Below are positions 51,857-63,740 of a DNA stretch of 64,000 bases, in pieces (positions within the stretch are counted from its first letter, which is position 1; every line of letters starts with the position of its first letter). The stretch comes from an uncultured Myxococcales bacterium. Its GTDB lineage: Bacteria; Myxococcota_A; Polyangia; Palsa-1104; JAEUJZ01. The notes under the pieces are model-generated. The model ran no database searches. It was not told the DNA's origin and saw nothing but the letters and a program-made list of their open reading frames with translations. The DNA lies in NCBI GenBank assembly GCA_964628555.1, contig CAZVMD010000003.1, forward strand, positions 264 to 64,263, read 5' to 3'. The position numbers were made by a program, and so were the translations under genes.

Positions 51857-52825
51857 ATGGGAAACGTACTTATCTATCTGGAGCAGGCGGATGGCGCGCT
51901 GCGTCCAGCGGCACTCTCGGCCATCACCTTTGCCCGCGCGGTGCACAAGGCGCAGGGCGGCAAGCTGCTGTTCCTGCTGATCGGCGACAACGTCCGGGGG
52001 GCGGCGGCGCAGGCCGCGACCTTCGGGGCTGACGCGGTCCTAACGGCCGAGGCACCGGCCCTCAAGCACTACCTGGCCGAGACCTATGCGCCGATCGTGG
52101 CGCGCGTCGCCAAGGAGCAGGGGGCGTCGCTGGTCGGCGGCACCAGCACCTCGGTGGGCAAGGATCTCTTGCCGCGCGTCGCCGGTCTTTTGGATGCGGG
52201 CCTGGCGCCGGATATCAGCGCTGTGCTGGCGGCACGGCAGTTCCGTCGGGCCACCAACGCGGGCAACGTCTATCAGACGCTGGAGATCGCCAGCCCGATC
52301 GCTGTCGTCAGCGCCCGTCAGACCGAATTCCCGCGCGCCGCACCCAGCGGCAGCAGCAGCCCGGTCAGCGCCGTCGCGCCTGGGGACATCGATGCCCGCG
52401 GCGCCGAGTTTGTCGAGCTCCAGACGCAGAAGCGCGATCGTCCCGACCTCACCGAGGCCCGCATCGTCGTCTCGGGCGGCCGCGGCATGAAAGAGGGCAA
52501 GAACTTTGCCGCCATCGAGCAGATCTGCGACGTGCTGGGCGCCGCCATGGGAGCCAGCCGCGCCGCCTGCGATGCCGGCATGGTGCCCAACGACCTGCAG
52601 GTCGGTCAGACCGGCAAGGTGGTGGCCCCGGATCTGTACATCGCCGTCGCCATCTCGGGCGCCATCCAGCACCTCGCCGGCATGAAGGGCTCGAAGGTCA
52701 TCGTCGCCATCAACAAGGATGCCGAGGCGCCGATCTTCCAGCTTGCCGACTATGGCTTGGTGGCGCAGTGGGAAAAGGCGCTGCCCGAGCTGCTCAGCGA
52801 GCTTAAGCGCGTCAAGAGCGCCTAA
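51857..52825 (+). CDS. etfA: electron transfer flavoprotein alpha subunit
   Basis: The start is set at the in-frame ATG 51857 ([13 protein letters not shown]). The C-terminal FAD-binding block is [10 protein letters not shown]...[50 protein letters not shown]. The track ORF starts at 51728 inside etfB. Confidence 0.95.
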
Positions 52826-52932
52826 GCCCGCGCCCCCTCCAGCCGCATCCGCCCGCCTCCCTCGCATCCTCCCTCAGCGCTCTCCAGATAGGCAGTTTTG
52901 CTGAATCCTAGCCGACGGCTCAGGGAATTTTC

Positions 52933-60096: not shown

Positions 60097-60220
60097 GCGG
60101 TTCTCCTGGGACAGTTCTCCTGCGACGCTGCGGCGGGAGTGAGCCCAGCAGTCGGAAGCCGGGTCAGCCAGTGCGTAAGCAGGGGGCCAAGGATATACAG
60201 TGCCGCGGTCGACGATGCGC

Positions 60221-60313
60221 AAAAATAGCAACGCCCCGGTGCTCTCGTTGCGGAGGGCGACCGGGGCGTTGGCGAGGCGCTGTCTGAGCCGCTGAGGTGA
60301 GTCAGCCGCTCAG
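60221..60313 (-). terminator. two consecutive hairpins after the paralog operon, the distal one a Rho-independent terminator
   Basis: On the minus strand, CAACGCCCCGGT (60271-60260) pairs perfectly over 12 bp with ACCGGGGCGTTG (60240-60229), with a 19-nt loop. It is followed by C-TATTTTT (60228-60221). Proximal to the stop codon, a second hairpin spans 60284-60295/60302-60313 (11 of 12 pairs, 6-nt loop). Confidence 0.7.
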
Positions 60314-60329
60314 GCAGAACGAGGCAGGA

Positions 60330-61157
60330 TTACTTGCAGCAGGCGATCGGGAACGGGGTTCCACAAGCCGACGGCGAGCCGCCGCTAGACGGGCCACTGG
60401 CAAACCACAGGGCCTTGCCTTGGGCGGTTGGCGAGGCCTTCCACTCGACGGTGGTGCCATACCAGTGGAAGTCACCGGTGCCGTAGGTGAAGCCGGCGCA
60501 GTTGTCCGAGAGGCCGTTGCCAGGCTGCTGCTTGGTGAAGCCGGGCTCGTTGTGCTGCCAGCTCTCCATGTTGACCCAGGAGCGCGAGAGCGTCGCCGGG
60601 ATGGCGTTGAACACGACGCTGTTGTACATGTCGTAGACCGTACACATGCGCGCGCCGGCGCCGCAGGCCGGGACCGTCTGGCACAGGTTGGCCGCGCCCT
60701 CGACACCGGTCTTGGCGTTATTGCCCGTGATGGCGCCGGTGACGGGGGTGGTGTACTGGCCGCAGTACTTCGCGACGCTGGCCCGCGAGCCGGGCATGAG
60801 GTTGTTGATCGTCGTCTTGAAGCTCTGCAGCCGGGTGTAGGTCGTGTTGATCAGGGTGATGTCCGCCGCATCCAGCGACTCCGTGCCCTTATCAACGCAG
60901 GTGTAGACGCCGATCTCGCTGCCCTTGGTGTAGGTCAGAAGCTGGCCGGTCTTGTTGCAGTCGGGAACGTTGAGCATCGCGCCGACGACTTCACGGCAGG
61001 CCAAGCCACCGCTGGCATAGGTCAGGAACTGGTTTTCGGCGCAGATCGGCAGCGAGTTGGCGATCAGCGGATCGATCTTCGAGGCAAATTCATCGGTGTC
61101 TGCTCCCATCAACACAGGGGCAAACACCAGCAGATAGGCGATGTGAAACTTGCGCAT
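60330..61157 (-). CDS. Cys-rich secreted protein, paralog A (variable N-module plus conserved endostatin/C-type-lectin-like C-terminal domain, by-eye)
   Basis: 275 aa with signal peptide MRKFHIAYLLVFAPVLMGA. The N-terminus has two P-x-C...C hairpin motifs. The conserved C-domain is CGQYTTPVTGAITGNNAKTGVEGAANLC...MCTVYDMY...SWQHNEPGFTKQQPGNGLSDNCAGFTYGTGDFHWYGTTVEW...ACGTPFPIACCK. It is the third gene of a tight operon. Confidence 0.85.
   Translation of the reverse strand: MRKFHIAYLLVFAPVLMGADTDEFASKIDPLIANSLPICAENQFLTYASGGLACREVVGAMLNVPDCNKTGQLLTYTKGSEIGVYTCVDKGTESLDAADITLINTTYTRLQSFKTTINNLMPGSRASVAKYCGQYTTPVTGAITGNNAKTGVEGAANLCQTVPACGAGARMCTVYDMYNSVVFNAIPATLSRSWVNMESWQHNEPGFTKQQPGNGLSDNCAGFTYGTGDFHWYGTTVEWKASPTAQGKALWFASGPSSGGSPSACGTPFPIACCK
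60361..60565. repeat. 205-bp tract 100% identical to 62056-62260 (paralog A versus C)
   Basis: Compared base by base in the printed sequence: identical from CCACAAGCCGACGGCGAGCC... through ...GTTGTGCTGCCAGCTCT. Confidence 0.9.
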
Positions 61158-61172
61158 GGAGTTTCCCCTTTC

Positions 61173-62003
61173 TTAGTTGCAGCAGGCGATCGGGAACGGG
61201 GTTCCACAAGCCGACGGCGCGCCGCCTGACGTCGGGCCACTCTTGAAGTGGAGGGCATTGCCTTGGCTTGTTGGGGAGGCCATCCACTCAACAGTGGTGC
61301 CATACCAGTGAAAGTCACCGGTGCCGTAGGTGAAGCCGGCACAGTTGTCCGATAGACCGTTGCCAGGCTGCTGCTTGGTGAAGCCGGGCTCGTTGTGCTG
61401 CCAGGCAGACATGTACACCCACGAGCGCGTCACGGTGCCGGGCAGCTTGCCAGTCGCGGCACTGTGGTACATGTCATAGACGGTGCACATCTTGGCCGCG
61501 GTGGCGCTGCAGCCCGGGACCTTGCGGCACAGAGCTGCTGCCGCGAGGATACCGGAGCTAACGCCATCGTTAATGGCGCCGGTGGTGGCCGTCGTGTACT
61601 GACCGCACCAGACCGCGCGTGGGGCCGGACCCGAGGGACCGCCCAGCGAGTTGATCTTGGTCTGGTACTCCTTGATCAGGATCTCGCTCTGCTCCAGGTT
61701 GTTGAGCGCGTCGCGCGTGCCCTGCGCCTCGTTGTTCCGGTTGGTGCAGAACACCTTGGTGCCATCCGCAGTCAGCGACTCGCTGTACTTCTTGCAGTCC
61801 GGCAGAGCGGCCGCGCCCGGGGGCAGCGGCTTGCAGATCAGCTGGCCTGCTGGGTTCGTGCTGAGCACCTGATCGGGGCCCGCGCACAGAGGGATTTGTA
61901 CAAATTCGGGTGTACCGCCGGCGCCTTCCTGACCGCAGGCGACCACCAGCAGAGGAGCAAACATCCACGCCTTCAGGCGTGAGCTAGTTGGCTGGTTACG
62001 CAT
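61173..62003 (-). CDS. Cys-rich lipoprotein, paralog B
   Basis: 276 aa. The lipobox is LLVVAC. The architecture matches paralog A, and the C-terminus is ...ACGTPFPIACCN. A 15-bp gap separates it from paralog A, and a purine-rich stretch (AAAGGGGA) lies in that gap upstream of the paralog A start. Confidence 0.85.
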   Translation of the reverse strand: MRNQPTSSRLKAWMFAPLLVVACGQEGAGGTPEFVQIPLCAGPDQVLSTNPAGQLICKPLPPGAAALPDCKKYSESLTADGTKVFCTNRNNEAQGTRDALNNLEQSEILIKEYQTKINSLGGPSGPAPRAVWCGQYTTATTGAINDGVSSGILAAAALCRKVPGCSATAAKMCTVYDMYHSAATGKLPGTVTRSWVYMSAWQHNEPGFTKQQPGNGLSDNCAGFTYGTGDFHWYGTTVEWMASPTSQGNALHFKSGPTSGGAPSACGTPFPIACCN

Positions 62004-62024
62004 AGTTCCTCCAAGTCGTCCGCG

Positions 62025-62855
62025 TTATTGACAACAGGCAATGGGAAAAGTGCTCCCACAAGCCGACGGCGAGCCGCCGCTAGACGGGCCACTGGCAAAC
62101 CACAGGGCCTTGCCTTGGGCGGTTGGCGAGGCCTTCCACTCGACGGTGGTGCCATACCAGTGGAAGTCACCGGTGCCGTAGGTGAAGCCGGCGCAGTTGT
62201 CCGAGAGGCCGTTGCCAGGCTGCTGCTTGGTGAAGCCGGGCTCGTTGTGCTGCCAGCTCTGCATGTAGACCCAAGAGCGGCTGACGGTCGCCGGCAGGCC
62301 ACCGGCCGCCGCGATCTCGTACATCTCGTAGACGGTGCACATGTGCGCGCCGACGCCACAGCCCTGCACGGTCGAGCACAGGTTGGCCGCGCCCTCGACA
62401 CCAGTCTTGGCGTTGTTGCCCGTGATGGCGCCGGTGACGGGGGTGGTGTACTGGCCGCACCACTTGGCTGACGAGCCACCGCCGCTGATCGAGGTGATGC
62501 TGGTCTCGATGTTGTCCGTGTCCATCTTGACCTTGTTGATGATCGTCTTCAGGCCGGCGTTGGTGCCGCCCGCGCCCTTCGGCATGCACTCGAGGATGCC
62601 GTCGTAGGCATTGAGGGCCGAGTTGGCAACCGCACTGCAGTCCGGCGGAGCCAGACCCGCGGTCAGGGCCTGGGTGCACGACATCGTGCGATCCGCGCCC
62701 ACTGCGATTAGCTGACCGTCGAGACAGTCAGGAAGCGTAAGCCCACCCGGGGGAACAGTCACCGGGTTGATAGTCGTATTGCCGCCGCAGCCGACCAGAA
62801 GCGGGACTGCCAGCAGGGCCGTCTTGAGGCTAGTTAGGAAAATGGTTCTGCGCAT
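62025..62855 (-). CDS. Cys-rich lipoprotein, paralog C
   Basis: 276 aa with AGGAGG 4 nt upstream of the ATG. The lipobox is PLLVGC. The architecture matches paralogs A and B, and the C-terminus is ...ACGSTFPIACCQ. A 21-bp gap with a GGAGGA separates it from paralog B. Confidence 0.85.
   Translation of the reverse strand: MRRTIFLTSLKTALLAVPLLVGCGGNTTINPVTVPPGGLTLPDCLDGQLIAVGADRTMSCTQALTAGLAPPDCSAVANSALNAYDGILECMPKGAGGTNAGLKTIINKVKMDTDNIETSITSISGGGSSAKWCGQYTTPVTGAITGNNAKTGVEGAANLCSTVQGCGVGAHMCTVYEMYEIAAAGGLPATVSRSWVYMQSWQHNEPGFTKQQPGNGLSDNCAGFTYGTGDFHWYGTTVEWKASPTAQGKALWFASGPSSGGSPSACGSTFPIACCQ
62056..62260. repeat. 205-bp tract 100% identical to 60361-60565 (paralog C versus A)
   Basis: See the partner repeat. 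A second near-identical tract (about 80 bp, 2 mismatches seen) lies at roughly 60682-60765 versus 62379-62460. Confidence 0.9.
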
Positions 62856-62865
62856 GACCCCTCCT

Positions 62866-62913
62866 AGAGGTGTAGTGAAGATTACACTAATAATTCGAAG
62901 ATAAATAAGTCAA
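62866..62913 (-). promoter_or_regulatory. candidate sigma-70-like promoter of the paralog operon
   Basis: The minus strand reads TTGACT (62913-62908) followed by tatttatcttcgaattattagtgtaatcttcactaca. Possible -10 hexamers are TATTAG (15-nt spacer) or TAATCT (21-nt spacer), and neither is ideal. The block is AT-rich and lies about 50 nt upstream of the paralog C ATG. Confidence 0.3.
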
Positions 62914-63200
62914 CAGGCATTCGCTAAGGGTGCGCAACCGCTGAGCTCTGGCCCTCGTCAGAGGCATCTCACCTGGCCTCCTCCGCAGGGCTACGAGGTC
63001 TGCGGGAGACCTGAAAAATAATTGTTACTCATAGTACACAAATAATATCCGACAATCGGCGCTGACTGAGCTTCAGGACGCCTGCACAGCCGAGCCATAT
63101 CACTGCTCGGCCCTGCTCAGGCCTGCGCTGTGCGTGGGGGAACTAGCCTCTCTGGCTGGGGACGGGTGCCCGGGGACTGCTGGGACGCGGGCGCGTCGGC

Positions 63201-63740
63201 TTACGAGCTTGCGGCGGGCTTATCGGTCGCAGGGGTGTCTTTTTCGCTGGGCTCTGCAGCAGGGCTAGCGGCGGCGTCTGGGGCGCCTGGGCTGGGGGGA
63301 GGCGATGCGTCGTCGCTGTGGCCCTGGCCGGCGTTGTTCTTTACCGCTTCACCAACGGCACTTACAAAGCTACCGAGGGCTTTTTCGAGGTCGCCAGCTA
63401 GGCGGTCGAGGCGGGTTCGCAGCACGCCCCAGCCCTCTTCGCCGACATCGCGGAGCTCATGCAGGCGACTGAAGGCATCGGGGTACTGATCTTTTACCGT
63501 GGCGATCTCTTTTTCGATGACCGCACGAGCCTGGGCGGTGGCCTGCGCCAGATCGGCCGCTAGCTTGCTCTGCATCGCATCGACCTGCTCACCCAGGCCG
63601 CTGAACTGCTCACGCAGCTTGCGCCGGAGGTCGTCAAAGTTGGCCGCGCCTGTGGCCGGGTTCTCGCTGGACTGGGCGGGCGCTGGGGCCGTCGGCGGCT
63701 CACCGGCCGCGGGGGTCGTCGGGGTCTCCGATTCACTCAT
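63201..63740 (-). CDS. hypothetical helical protein with Pro/Ala-rich termini
   Basis: 179 aa. The central amphipathic-helix-like region is FDDLRRKLREQFSGLGEQVDAMQSKLAADLAQATAQARAVIEKEIATVKDQYPDAF...RLDRLAGDLEKALGSFVSAVGEAV. A phasin- or apolipoprotein-like nature is only a guess. Confidence 0.55.
   Translation of the reverse strand: MSESETPTTPAAGEPPTAPAPAQSSENPATGAANFDDLRRKLREQFSGLGEQVDAMQSKLAADLAQATAQARAVIEKEIATVKDQYPDAFSRLHELRDVGEEGWGVLRTRLDRLAGDLEKALGSFVSAVGEAVKNNAGQGHSDDASPPPSPGAPDAAASPAAEPSEKDTPATDKPAASS

Follow-up and report, generated by a model that had tools for sequence, protein, structure and literature searches.

Several described systems present a C-terminal globular recognition head on a stalk by way of an alpha-helical neck, among them the collectins and C1q and the bacterial collagen-like adhesins Scl1/Scl2 and Lcl, and the three chains of C1q (A, C and B) are encoded by three tandem genes. 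The Myxococcus surface recognition protein TraA reportedly carries a variable, lectin-like head, polymorphic between strains, on a stalk of Cys-rich repeats. In Bdellovibrio bacteriovorus, the MAT (mosaic adhesive trimer) proteins form surface-displayed homotrimeric fibers whose N-terminal domain is invariant and whose adhesive tips can be swapped; one tip binds Proteus glycans, and another, Bd2740, is a Ca-independent, trimeric variant of the C-type lectins with the snaclec agkisacucetin as its nearest homolog (Caulton et al., 2024; PMC10769870). Recognition of other cells by predators other than Bdellovibrio, such as the myxobacteria and Bradymonadia, is poorly understood. In this study, we analyzed 64,000 nucleotides of DNA from an uncultured Myxococcales bacterium (assembly GCA_964628555.1, contig CAZVMD010000003.1, positions 264 to 64,263; hereafter the window), which hold an operon of three paralogous genes, A, B and C, for Cys-rich exported proteins with a conserved C-terminal domain that we call the head. 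The most likely reading, to which we give about an even chance, is that this operon encodes lipid-tethered, probably trimeric, short recognition stalks on the cell envelope.

The window proteins share the order of stalk, alpha-helical neck and C-terminal globular head with the collectins, C1q, Scl1/Scl2 and Lcl, and the trio recalls the three tandem C1q genes. The head itself has no sequence similarity or significant structural similarity to Lectin_C, C1q or the Lcl C-terminal domain. No sequence relation to TraA was detected, scans with NCBIfam gave no myxobacterial Cys-repeat or MYXO-CTERM family, and the predicted anchor of the window proteins is an N-terminal lipid, unlike that of TraA. 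MAT proteins combine a conserved end near the cell with a trimeric stalk and a tip that can be swapped, and the head serves as the tip of MAT-like fibers in Bradymonadia and related metagenome-assembled genomes (MAGs). The window proteins differ from MAT proteins in their length (about 275 aa vs. about 600-1000 aa), their lipid anchor, their stalk of Cys-hairpins plus one short neck and their conserved three-gene set, and their head has no sequence similarity to any PDB entry.

Exported modular proteins that hold a recognition head on an oligomeric stalk are already known, as are tip-swapping fibers, and no concept is overturned here; no description appears to exist of the head family or of the hairpin module in the stalk, nor of the conserved trio of lipoproteins with concerted evolution restricted to one domain. 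All carriers found so far are MAGs, which restricts direct experiments for now. What the locus offers is a candidate recognition module with clear domain boundaries and a confident model, namely a disulfide-rich tip domain common to MAT-like fibers and the lipoprotein trio.

A conserved three-gene operon

An earlier reading of the window from its sequence alone (the sequence-only reading) had proposed three head-to-tail genes of 275-276 aa with gaps of 15 bp and 21 bp, each preceded by a Shine-Dalgarno or purine-rich stretch. We recovered exactly these coordinates, with 21 bp between A and B and 15 bp between B and C, and located all three Shine-Dalgarno sequences: AGGAGG at 62860-62865 for A, GGAGGA for B and AAGGGGA for C.

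62855-62025, minus strand: gene A, an open reading frame (ORF) call for a lipoprotein precursor of 276 aa and the first gene in every related operon; hairpins P42-C44...C60 and P71-C73...C90, neck helix at about residues 100-124, head at residues 130-276
62028-62468, minus strand: head domain of A, residues 130-276, 147 aa with 8 Cys
62003-61173, minus strand: gene B, a lipoprotein precursor of 276 aa; hairpins C40-C57 and C70-C86, neck, head at residues 130-276 (61176-61616)
61157-60330, minus strand: gene C, 275 aa with a signal peptide and no lipobox Cys; hairpins C39-C54 and C67-C87, neck, head at residues 129-275 (60333-60773)

Two lipoboxes and one plain signal peptide had been predicted, and so we found them. 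A and B match the pattern [LVI][ASTVI][GAS]C with LLVG-C23 and LVVA-C23, respectively, calls that were made by eye and by regular expression with no dedicated predictor, and C has a signal peptide without the lipobox Cys. A and B contain 13 Cys each (one lipidated plus 12) and C contains 12, so that each mature protein would keep an even set of 12 non-lipid Cys. The proposed layout of a divergent N-terminal module with two P-x-C...C hairpins, a helical linker and a conserved C-terminal domain with 8 Cys is borne out by sequence and by an AlphaFold model built on a 49-sequence alignment, in which beta-hairpins at residues 48-62 and 79-92, each closed by its P-x-C...C pair, are followed by a helix at residues 100-124 and a confident C-terminal domain. 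Over about three heptads, this neck helix of about 25 residues follows a 3-4-3-4 hydrophobic pattern that is kept in the A, B and C orthologs. The N-terminal parts of the three window proteins are only 19%–25% identical, and their heads are near-identical.

The hairpin repeat is covered by no Pfam or NCBIfam model. We also observed the hairpin, of about 22 aa with the form P-x-C-x2-G-x-x-L...C, as multiple copies in very large proteins that lack the head, and also in an LVIVD-repeat protein (P0180, 1500 aa; P0196, 2446 aa; P0199, 406 aa).

A scan of GTDB species representatives gave ten further loci (L001-L010), of which eight come from uncultured Myxococcales, Polyangia or ‘Pseudomonadota’ MAGs of independent studies and one lies on a contig binned as Nitrospira. 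Three tandem copies are present in eight of the ten (L003-L010), as in the window, with two copies in L001 and two before the contig end in L002. Gene order in the related loci is invariably A, B, C, and each position has its own N-terminal signature: ‘MRR/K..LLAVPLL.GCG’ with a lipobox in A, ‘MRN/T..APLL..ACG’ with a lipobox in B, and ‘MRK..FAPVLMGAD’, with no Cys, in C. Hidden Markov models of the N-terminal parts sorted the family proteins examined into 43 of type A, 43 of type B and 37 of type C, and a lipobox was found in 33 of the 43 A and 38 of the 43 B proteins compared with 6 of the 37 C proteins (31/37 lack it). N-terminal parts of different types are 15%–31% identical within a genome, whereas those of the same type are 35%–94% identical between genomes; being closer between genomes than within them, they are ancient orthologs. 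The trio is an ancient, conserved A-B-C operon of uncultured Polyangia/Myxococcales and not a local triplication.

Only genes A and B were seen in L001 (6001-7647) and in L018 (5101-7194), and in L001 an HMGL-like gene comes directly after them. Either recombination between heads has truly deleted gene C at these two loci, or the 300-nt repeat described below collapsed during metagenome assembly.

The head on other stalks

The sequence-only reading had been unable to name the family, and scans of the three window proteins with Pfam and NCBIfam likewise gave no match. The family comprises 62 clusters at 90% identity among 5.8 billion proteins, and 460 representatives at E ≤ 1e-3 among 1.84 billion clusters at 50% identity. 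All annotated members are called ‘hypothetical protein’, and the named sources are Myxococcales, Polyangia, Haliangium (including Haliangium sp. UPWRP_2) and Bradymonadia MAGs, apart from some labeled only as ‘Pseudomonadota bacterium’ and the one contig binned as Nitrospira. As a domain family the head has no name, and among named sources it is confined to Myxococcota (uncultured Polyangia/Haliangium-like lineages and Bradymonadia). No relatives turned up in a pattern scan of viral contigs, and for the window protein PHROGs had no match.

Elsewhere the head, again with these six Cys, forms the distal C-terminus of proteins that are obligate or probable trimeric fibers. Proteins P0190-P0230, of which the named ones are from Bradymonadia, are 300-650 aa long and consist of an N-terminal beta-domain, a long heptad or repeat stalk and the head. 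Among 34 distant head-bearing proteins, 29 matched Bdello_MAT_N (NCBIfam NF053851) through this N-terminal beta-domain, with a best E-value of 8.9e-15, matches that at 40-51 bits lie under the curated NCBI cut-off of 60. In P0175, a true collagen Gly-X-Y region (Pfam Collagen, 1.7e-14, plus matches of the Scl/Lcl type; PHROGs gave collagen-repeat matches only) precedes a neck and the head, and this collagen stalk implies trimeric presentation in at least one member. In P0059, P0062 and P0087, 8-10 tandem Cys-hairpins precede a heptad stalk and the head. One head thus occurs on four stalk types, its alleles are exchanged between paralogs, and they differ between close relatives, as befits a swappable tip. 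A set of surface recognition or adhesion proteins, as first proposed for the trio from a likeness to endostatin and the Len proteins, is supported in its general idea since the head caps MAT-like adhesive fibers and a collagen stalk, but the endostatin/Len basis for it is not (see below).

Two side observations concern these proteins. P0063 (510 aa) contains two complete hairpin-neck-head modules, the first of which ends in ‘...APCSAMLPP’ without the terminal CC, and it may have arisen by fusion of, or read-through between, two neighboring genes. Just upstream of MAT-like head-bearing fiber genes, a gene of 300-390 aa was seen in three loci (L011, 7105-8004; L015, 6024-6938; L016, 4472-5632); its product is lipoprotein-like with faint to clear matches to TSP_3 (thrombospondin type 3) and is 35%–41% identical between loci.

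Concerted evolution of the heads

Heads follow a different course from the stalks. Within a genome they are 59%–99% identical (six loci) compared with 29%–65% between orthologs, and the heads of A and C reach 99% identity in L003 and 84% in the window. A repeat search found a 300-nt direct repeat in three copies in the window, and the following tracts are completely identical:

62056-62260, minus strand: gene-conversion tract in A; all 205 nt, third codon positions among them, are identical to 60361-60565 in C
60361-60565, minus strand: gene-conversion tract in C, matching 62056-62260 in A

A 48-nt core of this tract (60514-60561 in C) is identical also in B (61357-61404), and over the last 15 codons B and C are 96% identical while A and C are only 76% identical. 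The boundaries of the tracts are mosaic, as those of gene-conversion tracts are: heads are homogenized within genomes and stalks are kept distinct. Purifying selection alone was considered for the near-identity of the heads and rejected, because the identity over 205 nt extends to third codon positions. An assembly artefact is unlikely, since within-genome homogenization recurs in independent MAGs.

Close relatives differ in their heads, as L001 shows, a near relative that is syntenic with the window and flanked by the same genes. The N-terminal parts of the two loci are 88%–94% identical and the heads only 65%, with the difference concentrated in the C-terminal half after ‘SWQHN’, where A and B of L001 have an alternative allele in common. 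Heads are replaced as alleles between close relatives. Together, stalks that diverge as orthologs and heads that are homogenized within genomes and replaced between relatives provide a clean natural case of domain-restricted concerted evolution.

As a separate observation, tandem genes for MAT-like fibers in L016 (5690-6886 and 7001-8821) differ in their stalks but share 69% identity over 139 aa of the head, repeating the within-genome head similarity of the trio.

Proposed function

If the operon encodes recognition stalks, the necks of A, B and C would drive assembly into short trimers, either an A-B-C heterotrimer or three homotrimers, and these would be tethered to the outer membrane through the N-terminal lipid of A and B. 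The heads would then be presented as ligand-binding tips, and the binding surface would be where the head varies most, in the long loop that follows beta2 and in the beta3-beta4 region. The ligand may lie on another surface, whether prey, kin or matrix. In some species, a self-cleaving Hint insert would release chain A from its lipid anchor (see below).

Several observations weigh against this explanation. The head has no significant structural neighbor in Foldseek searches, and its designation as a binding domain comes from architecture and not from fold. With only about 100 residues, the stalk in the window is perhaps too short to extend beyond the cell surface, or it could point into the periplasm. 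Gene C appears to be missing from L001 and L018, and in the clade of L007, L009 and L010 the heads are not homogenized (32%–46% identity), so identical heads are not required. The window proteins lack the MAT N-terminal domain, a conserved beta-rich unit of about 130 aa that directly follows the signal peptide (no NF053851 match at E ≤ 1), and are therefore not MAT members. Finally, head-bearing genes of five other lineages are recurrently linked to di-haem oxidoreductase (DHOR) genes, a linkage that adhesion does not explain.

The same head is carried by fibers that, with several hundred residues of coiled coil or with collagen, are too long for the periplasm, and it occurs on MAT-like proteins whose Bdellovibrio homologs are surface-displayed (PMC10769870). 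Allelic replacement of heads between close relatives is also more typical of outward-facing recognition proteins. These observations speak against a rival explanation that we consider unlikely, in which A and B would be outer-membrane lipoproteins that face the periplasm, the third chain would be soluble there, and the set would give structure to the envelope or tether it, by a logic comparable to that of the trimeric coiled-coil lipoprotein Lpp. In its favor are the short stalks (about 100 aa), an N-terminal lipid anchor that follows standard Lol-type lipobox logic, the lack of an evident surface-export signal and the housekeeping and envelope genes next to the operon in the window (MacB/FtsX-type permease, FtsQ and ThiF), although these neighbors are not conserved outside the window's close relatives.

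The preferred reading of lipid-tethered recognition stalks can also be taken further, to an obligate heterotrimeric recognition fiber, a lipid-tethered counterpart of C1q and the collectins, encoded by a polymorphic locus for self/non-self or prey recognition in Haliangium-like myxobacteria. We hold this version to be rather improbable. Stalks would here set chain identity and register, while heads would be matched to each other by gene conversion and exchanged as cassettes between strains; the tip would be an undescribed domain, possibly a new or extremely divergent domain of C-type-lectin-like type, the same as on the MAT-like fibers of Bradymonadia.

Fold of the head

Sequence searches do not place the head in any described family. 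A Pfam scan of 58 family members at E ≤ 10 returned no Endostatin, Lectin_C, DUF1554 or DUF1566, with Hint, in six members, as the sole relevant match, and phmmer and profile searches against all PDB sequences returned only noise (antibody heavy chains and AhlC/XaxA coiled coils). An AlphaFold model of the head only, based on 110 diverse sequences, has a mean predicted local distance difference test (pLDDT) score of 91 and a predicted template modeling (pTM) score of 0.88. Its elements run in the order beta1, alpha1, alpha2, beta2, long loop, beta3, beta4, beta5, which is also the order of a C-type-lectin-like domain (CTLD), and there are Cys residues where alpha1 ends and within beta5, the two elements that a disulfide joins in CTLDs. 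In an alignment of 156 heads, six Cys are invariant. The extra Cys pair of the window subfamily is present as a whole in 39 of these heads, absent as a whole from 116 and reduced to a single Cys in 1, and the co-occurrence of this seventh and eighth Cys fits a fourth disulfide. Strong conservation is limited to Gly, Cys, Pro, Ala and a single Trp, which looks structural; the heads have neither a conserved catalytic or metal-binding residue nor a conserved His, Met, Asp or Glu.

Foldseek matches to CTLDs were weak. Searched against the PDB with the first model, seven of the top eight matches were CTLDs, including snaclecs such as agkisacucetin (3UBU), thrombomodulin and carbohydrate-recognition domain 4 of the mannose receptor, with a best E-value of 0.04, a probability of 0.90 and a TM-score of 0.47 by target. 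With the better, head-only model, only the top two matches were CTLDs (thrombomodulin and BDCA2; E = 0.5-1.8, TM-score about 0.3), and a search with the head model against the viral structures of BFVD gave noise. Agkisacucetin, among these weak matches, is also the nearest homolog of the MAT tip Bd2740. The Ca- and sugar-binding motifs of classical C-type lectins, EPN or QPD together with WND, were found in none of the 156 heads. From the model, the head is possibly a very divergent, Ca-independent CTLD-like domain, and if it is a CTLD, then it is of the non-Ca type, like the snaclecs or Bd2740. The description ‘C-type-lectin-like’ in the sequence-only reading is therefore tentative: it fits the order of the elements, but it finds little in the Foldseek matches and nothing in Lectin_C or in the Ca- and sugar-binding motifs.

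Endostatin is itself a member of the C-type-lectin-like fold class, and the sequence-only reading had compared the head with the endostatin domains of collagens XV and XVIII and with the Len proteins of Leptospira. The head would in that case be a bacterial endostatin-like domain binding extracellular-matrix-type proteins, which we regard as very unlikely. The resemblance lies in the Cys layout (at the end of helix 1, in a loop of the form ‘x-x-C-x-x-aromatic’ and as C-x7-C at the C-terminal strand), and four of the six invariant Cys, compared by position only, are compatible with the nested disulfides (1-4, 2-3) of endostatin. We aligned the 156-sequence head profile with PDB-derived endostatin of human and mouse collagen XVIII and human collagen XV in hhalign. 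The alignment does pair G-V-E-G-A-A-N-L-C with G-I-R-G-A-D-F-Q-C as well as the terminal Cys pairs, but without statistical support, at a probability of 0.46% and P = 0.13. No endostatin was returned by Foldseek at E ≤ 10 with either model, and superposition on the solved structures (1BNL, 1KOE, 1DY0-2) was not obtained; in favor of the endostatin reading stand the weak matches to CTLDs. Endostatin also has 4 Cys compared with 6-8 in the head and differs from it in taxon and domain organization. With the empty Pfam and PDB profile searches, these results leave homology to endostatin unsupported. Kinship with Len is likewise unsupported, as no DUF1554 match was found in the 58 members. Len proteins are, like the window proteins, paralogous lipoproteins whose Cys-bearing C-terminal domain ends right after the last Cys, and their genes, too, diversify by recombination; their own link to endostatin consists of PHYRE models with an estimated precision of 25%–60% (PMC2063517).

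Linkage to di-haem oxidoreductases

Directly downstream of head-bearing genes, two paralogous DHOR genes (PF06537, formerly DUF1111) were found in five independent lineages and with three stalk architectures: L006; L007, L009 and L010; L011 and L012 (Bradymonadia); L013 and L014 (Polyangiales); and L016. The two genes, D1 and D2, are orthologous across lineages, with 37%–38% identity between orthologs vs. 33%–35% between paralogs. Pairs lie at:

L006, 8667-11896: DHOR gene pair
L009, 2872-6173: DHOR gene pair
L010, 8595-11845: DHOR gene pair
L011, 10054-13394: DHOR gene pair
L013, 9387-11770: DHOR gene pair
L016, 8849-12130: DHOR gene pair

MauG-type di-haem enzymes mature proteins of the MbnP/MopE type or the disulfide-rich light chain of methylamine dehydrogenase, and the head could analogously be a partner, or a matured substrate, of the paired extracytoplasmic DHOR enzymes with a redox or metal function. 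DUF1111 is a di-haem peroxidase family tied to putative outer-membrane iron-uptake clusters (PMC3143127), and together with the recurrence of the pair and the orthology of D1 and D2 the linkage hints at a redox- or metal-related role. We nevertheless find it quite unlikely that this accounts for the head, which has no conserved His, Met, Asp or Glu and only the one structural-looking Trp to offer such an enzyme. No DHOR gene is present in the 64 kb window or beside the trio or head genes of L001-L005, L015, L017 and L018, and given its absence from the window the linkage is not directly relevant there. Other conserved genes of the cassette could also be the true DHOR partners; among genes beyond the pair, only a weak similarity between L013 and L006/L010 was found. 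The linkage remains a separate, testable lead.

Hint inserts in type-A orthologs

Some type-A proteins contain a Hint domain (Cys1...TxxH...VHN-K, with the Lys at position +1) that lies between the lipobox Cys, from which only a few residues separate it, and the first hairpin. This domain was found in the type-A chain of L004, L005 and L018 and in P0006 and P0011-P0016, and it is not present in gene A of the window:

L004, 5398-6732: Hint-bearing A ortholog
L005, 4214-5584: Hint-bearing A ortholog
L018, 5101-6342: Hint-bearing A ortholog

The insert matches PT-HINT (E = 1.4e-13) as well as N- and C-terminal intein models, and it shares Cys1, TxxH and the terminal HN with bacterial intein-like (BIL) and PT-HINT domains. 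It differs from the usual members of both in its position directly after the lipobox and in its +1 Lys. From the chemistry of inteins and BIL domains, a Lys at +1 leads one to expect cleavage and not splicing. By this analogy, the insert would detach stalk and head from the lipid anchor in these orthologs, though not in the window.

In polymorphic toxin systems PT-HINT precedes the toxin, and PT-HINT being the best Pfam match of the insert, the head module might be an antibacterial or signaling effector released by autoproteolysis. Tandem paralogs whose C-terminal head half differs as alleles between close relatives would suit such a role. We think it highly improbable, however, because Hint is restricted to the type-A chain of some genomes, no toxin family was matched in Pfam or NCBIfam, and no immunity-like small gene lies 3′ of the operon, where a terminator is followed by the HMGL-like gene. 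The other contexts of the head are fiber tips and not toxin cassettes.

Operon boundaries and neighboring genes

The operon is bounded by the following features:

62856-63200, minus strand: 5′ intergenic region of 345 bp, AT-richer than its flanks, with the AGGAGG of gene A
60220-60271, minus strand: terminator-like GC-rich hairpin followed by UAUUUUU, 3′ of gene C, which ends the operon

A scan of the 5′ region for the sigma-70 consensus found no promoter site, and the operon promoter is therefore only assumed. The terminator-like hairpin has a minimum free energy of -36.5 kcal/mol (z = -4.97), and none of 200 shuffled sequences folds equally well.

Paralogy of the three copies is strong by tblastn (E-values from 1e-65 to 1e-86), and the same search found no fourth paralog in the window. 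An ORF of 275 aa at 52040-52867 (minus strand) was considered as a fourth copy and rejected as an unrelated GC-rich shadow ORF. Long off-frame or antisense ORFs on the plus strand at 60297-61229, 61395-61982 and 62028-62471 are likewise high-GC shadow ORFs that overlap the real genes and are not genes themselves. Directly upstream of the operon, 63201-63740 (minus strand) encodes a helical, Ala/Pro-rich protein of 179 aa with a weak match of the Apolipoprotein A1/A4/E type, and the same protein occupies the same position in L001, L002 and L003.

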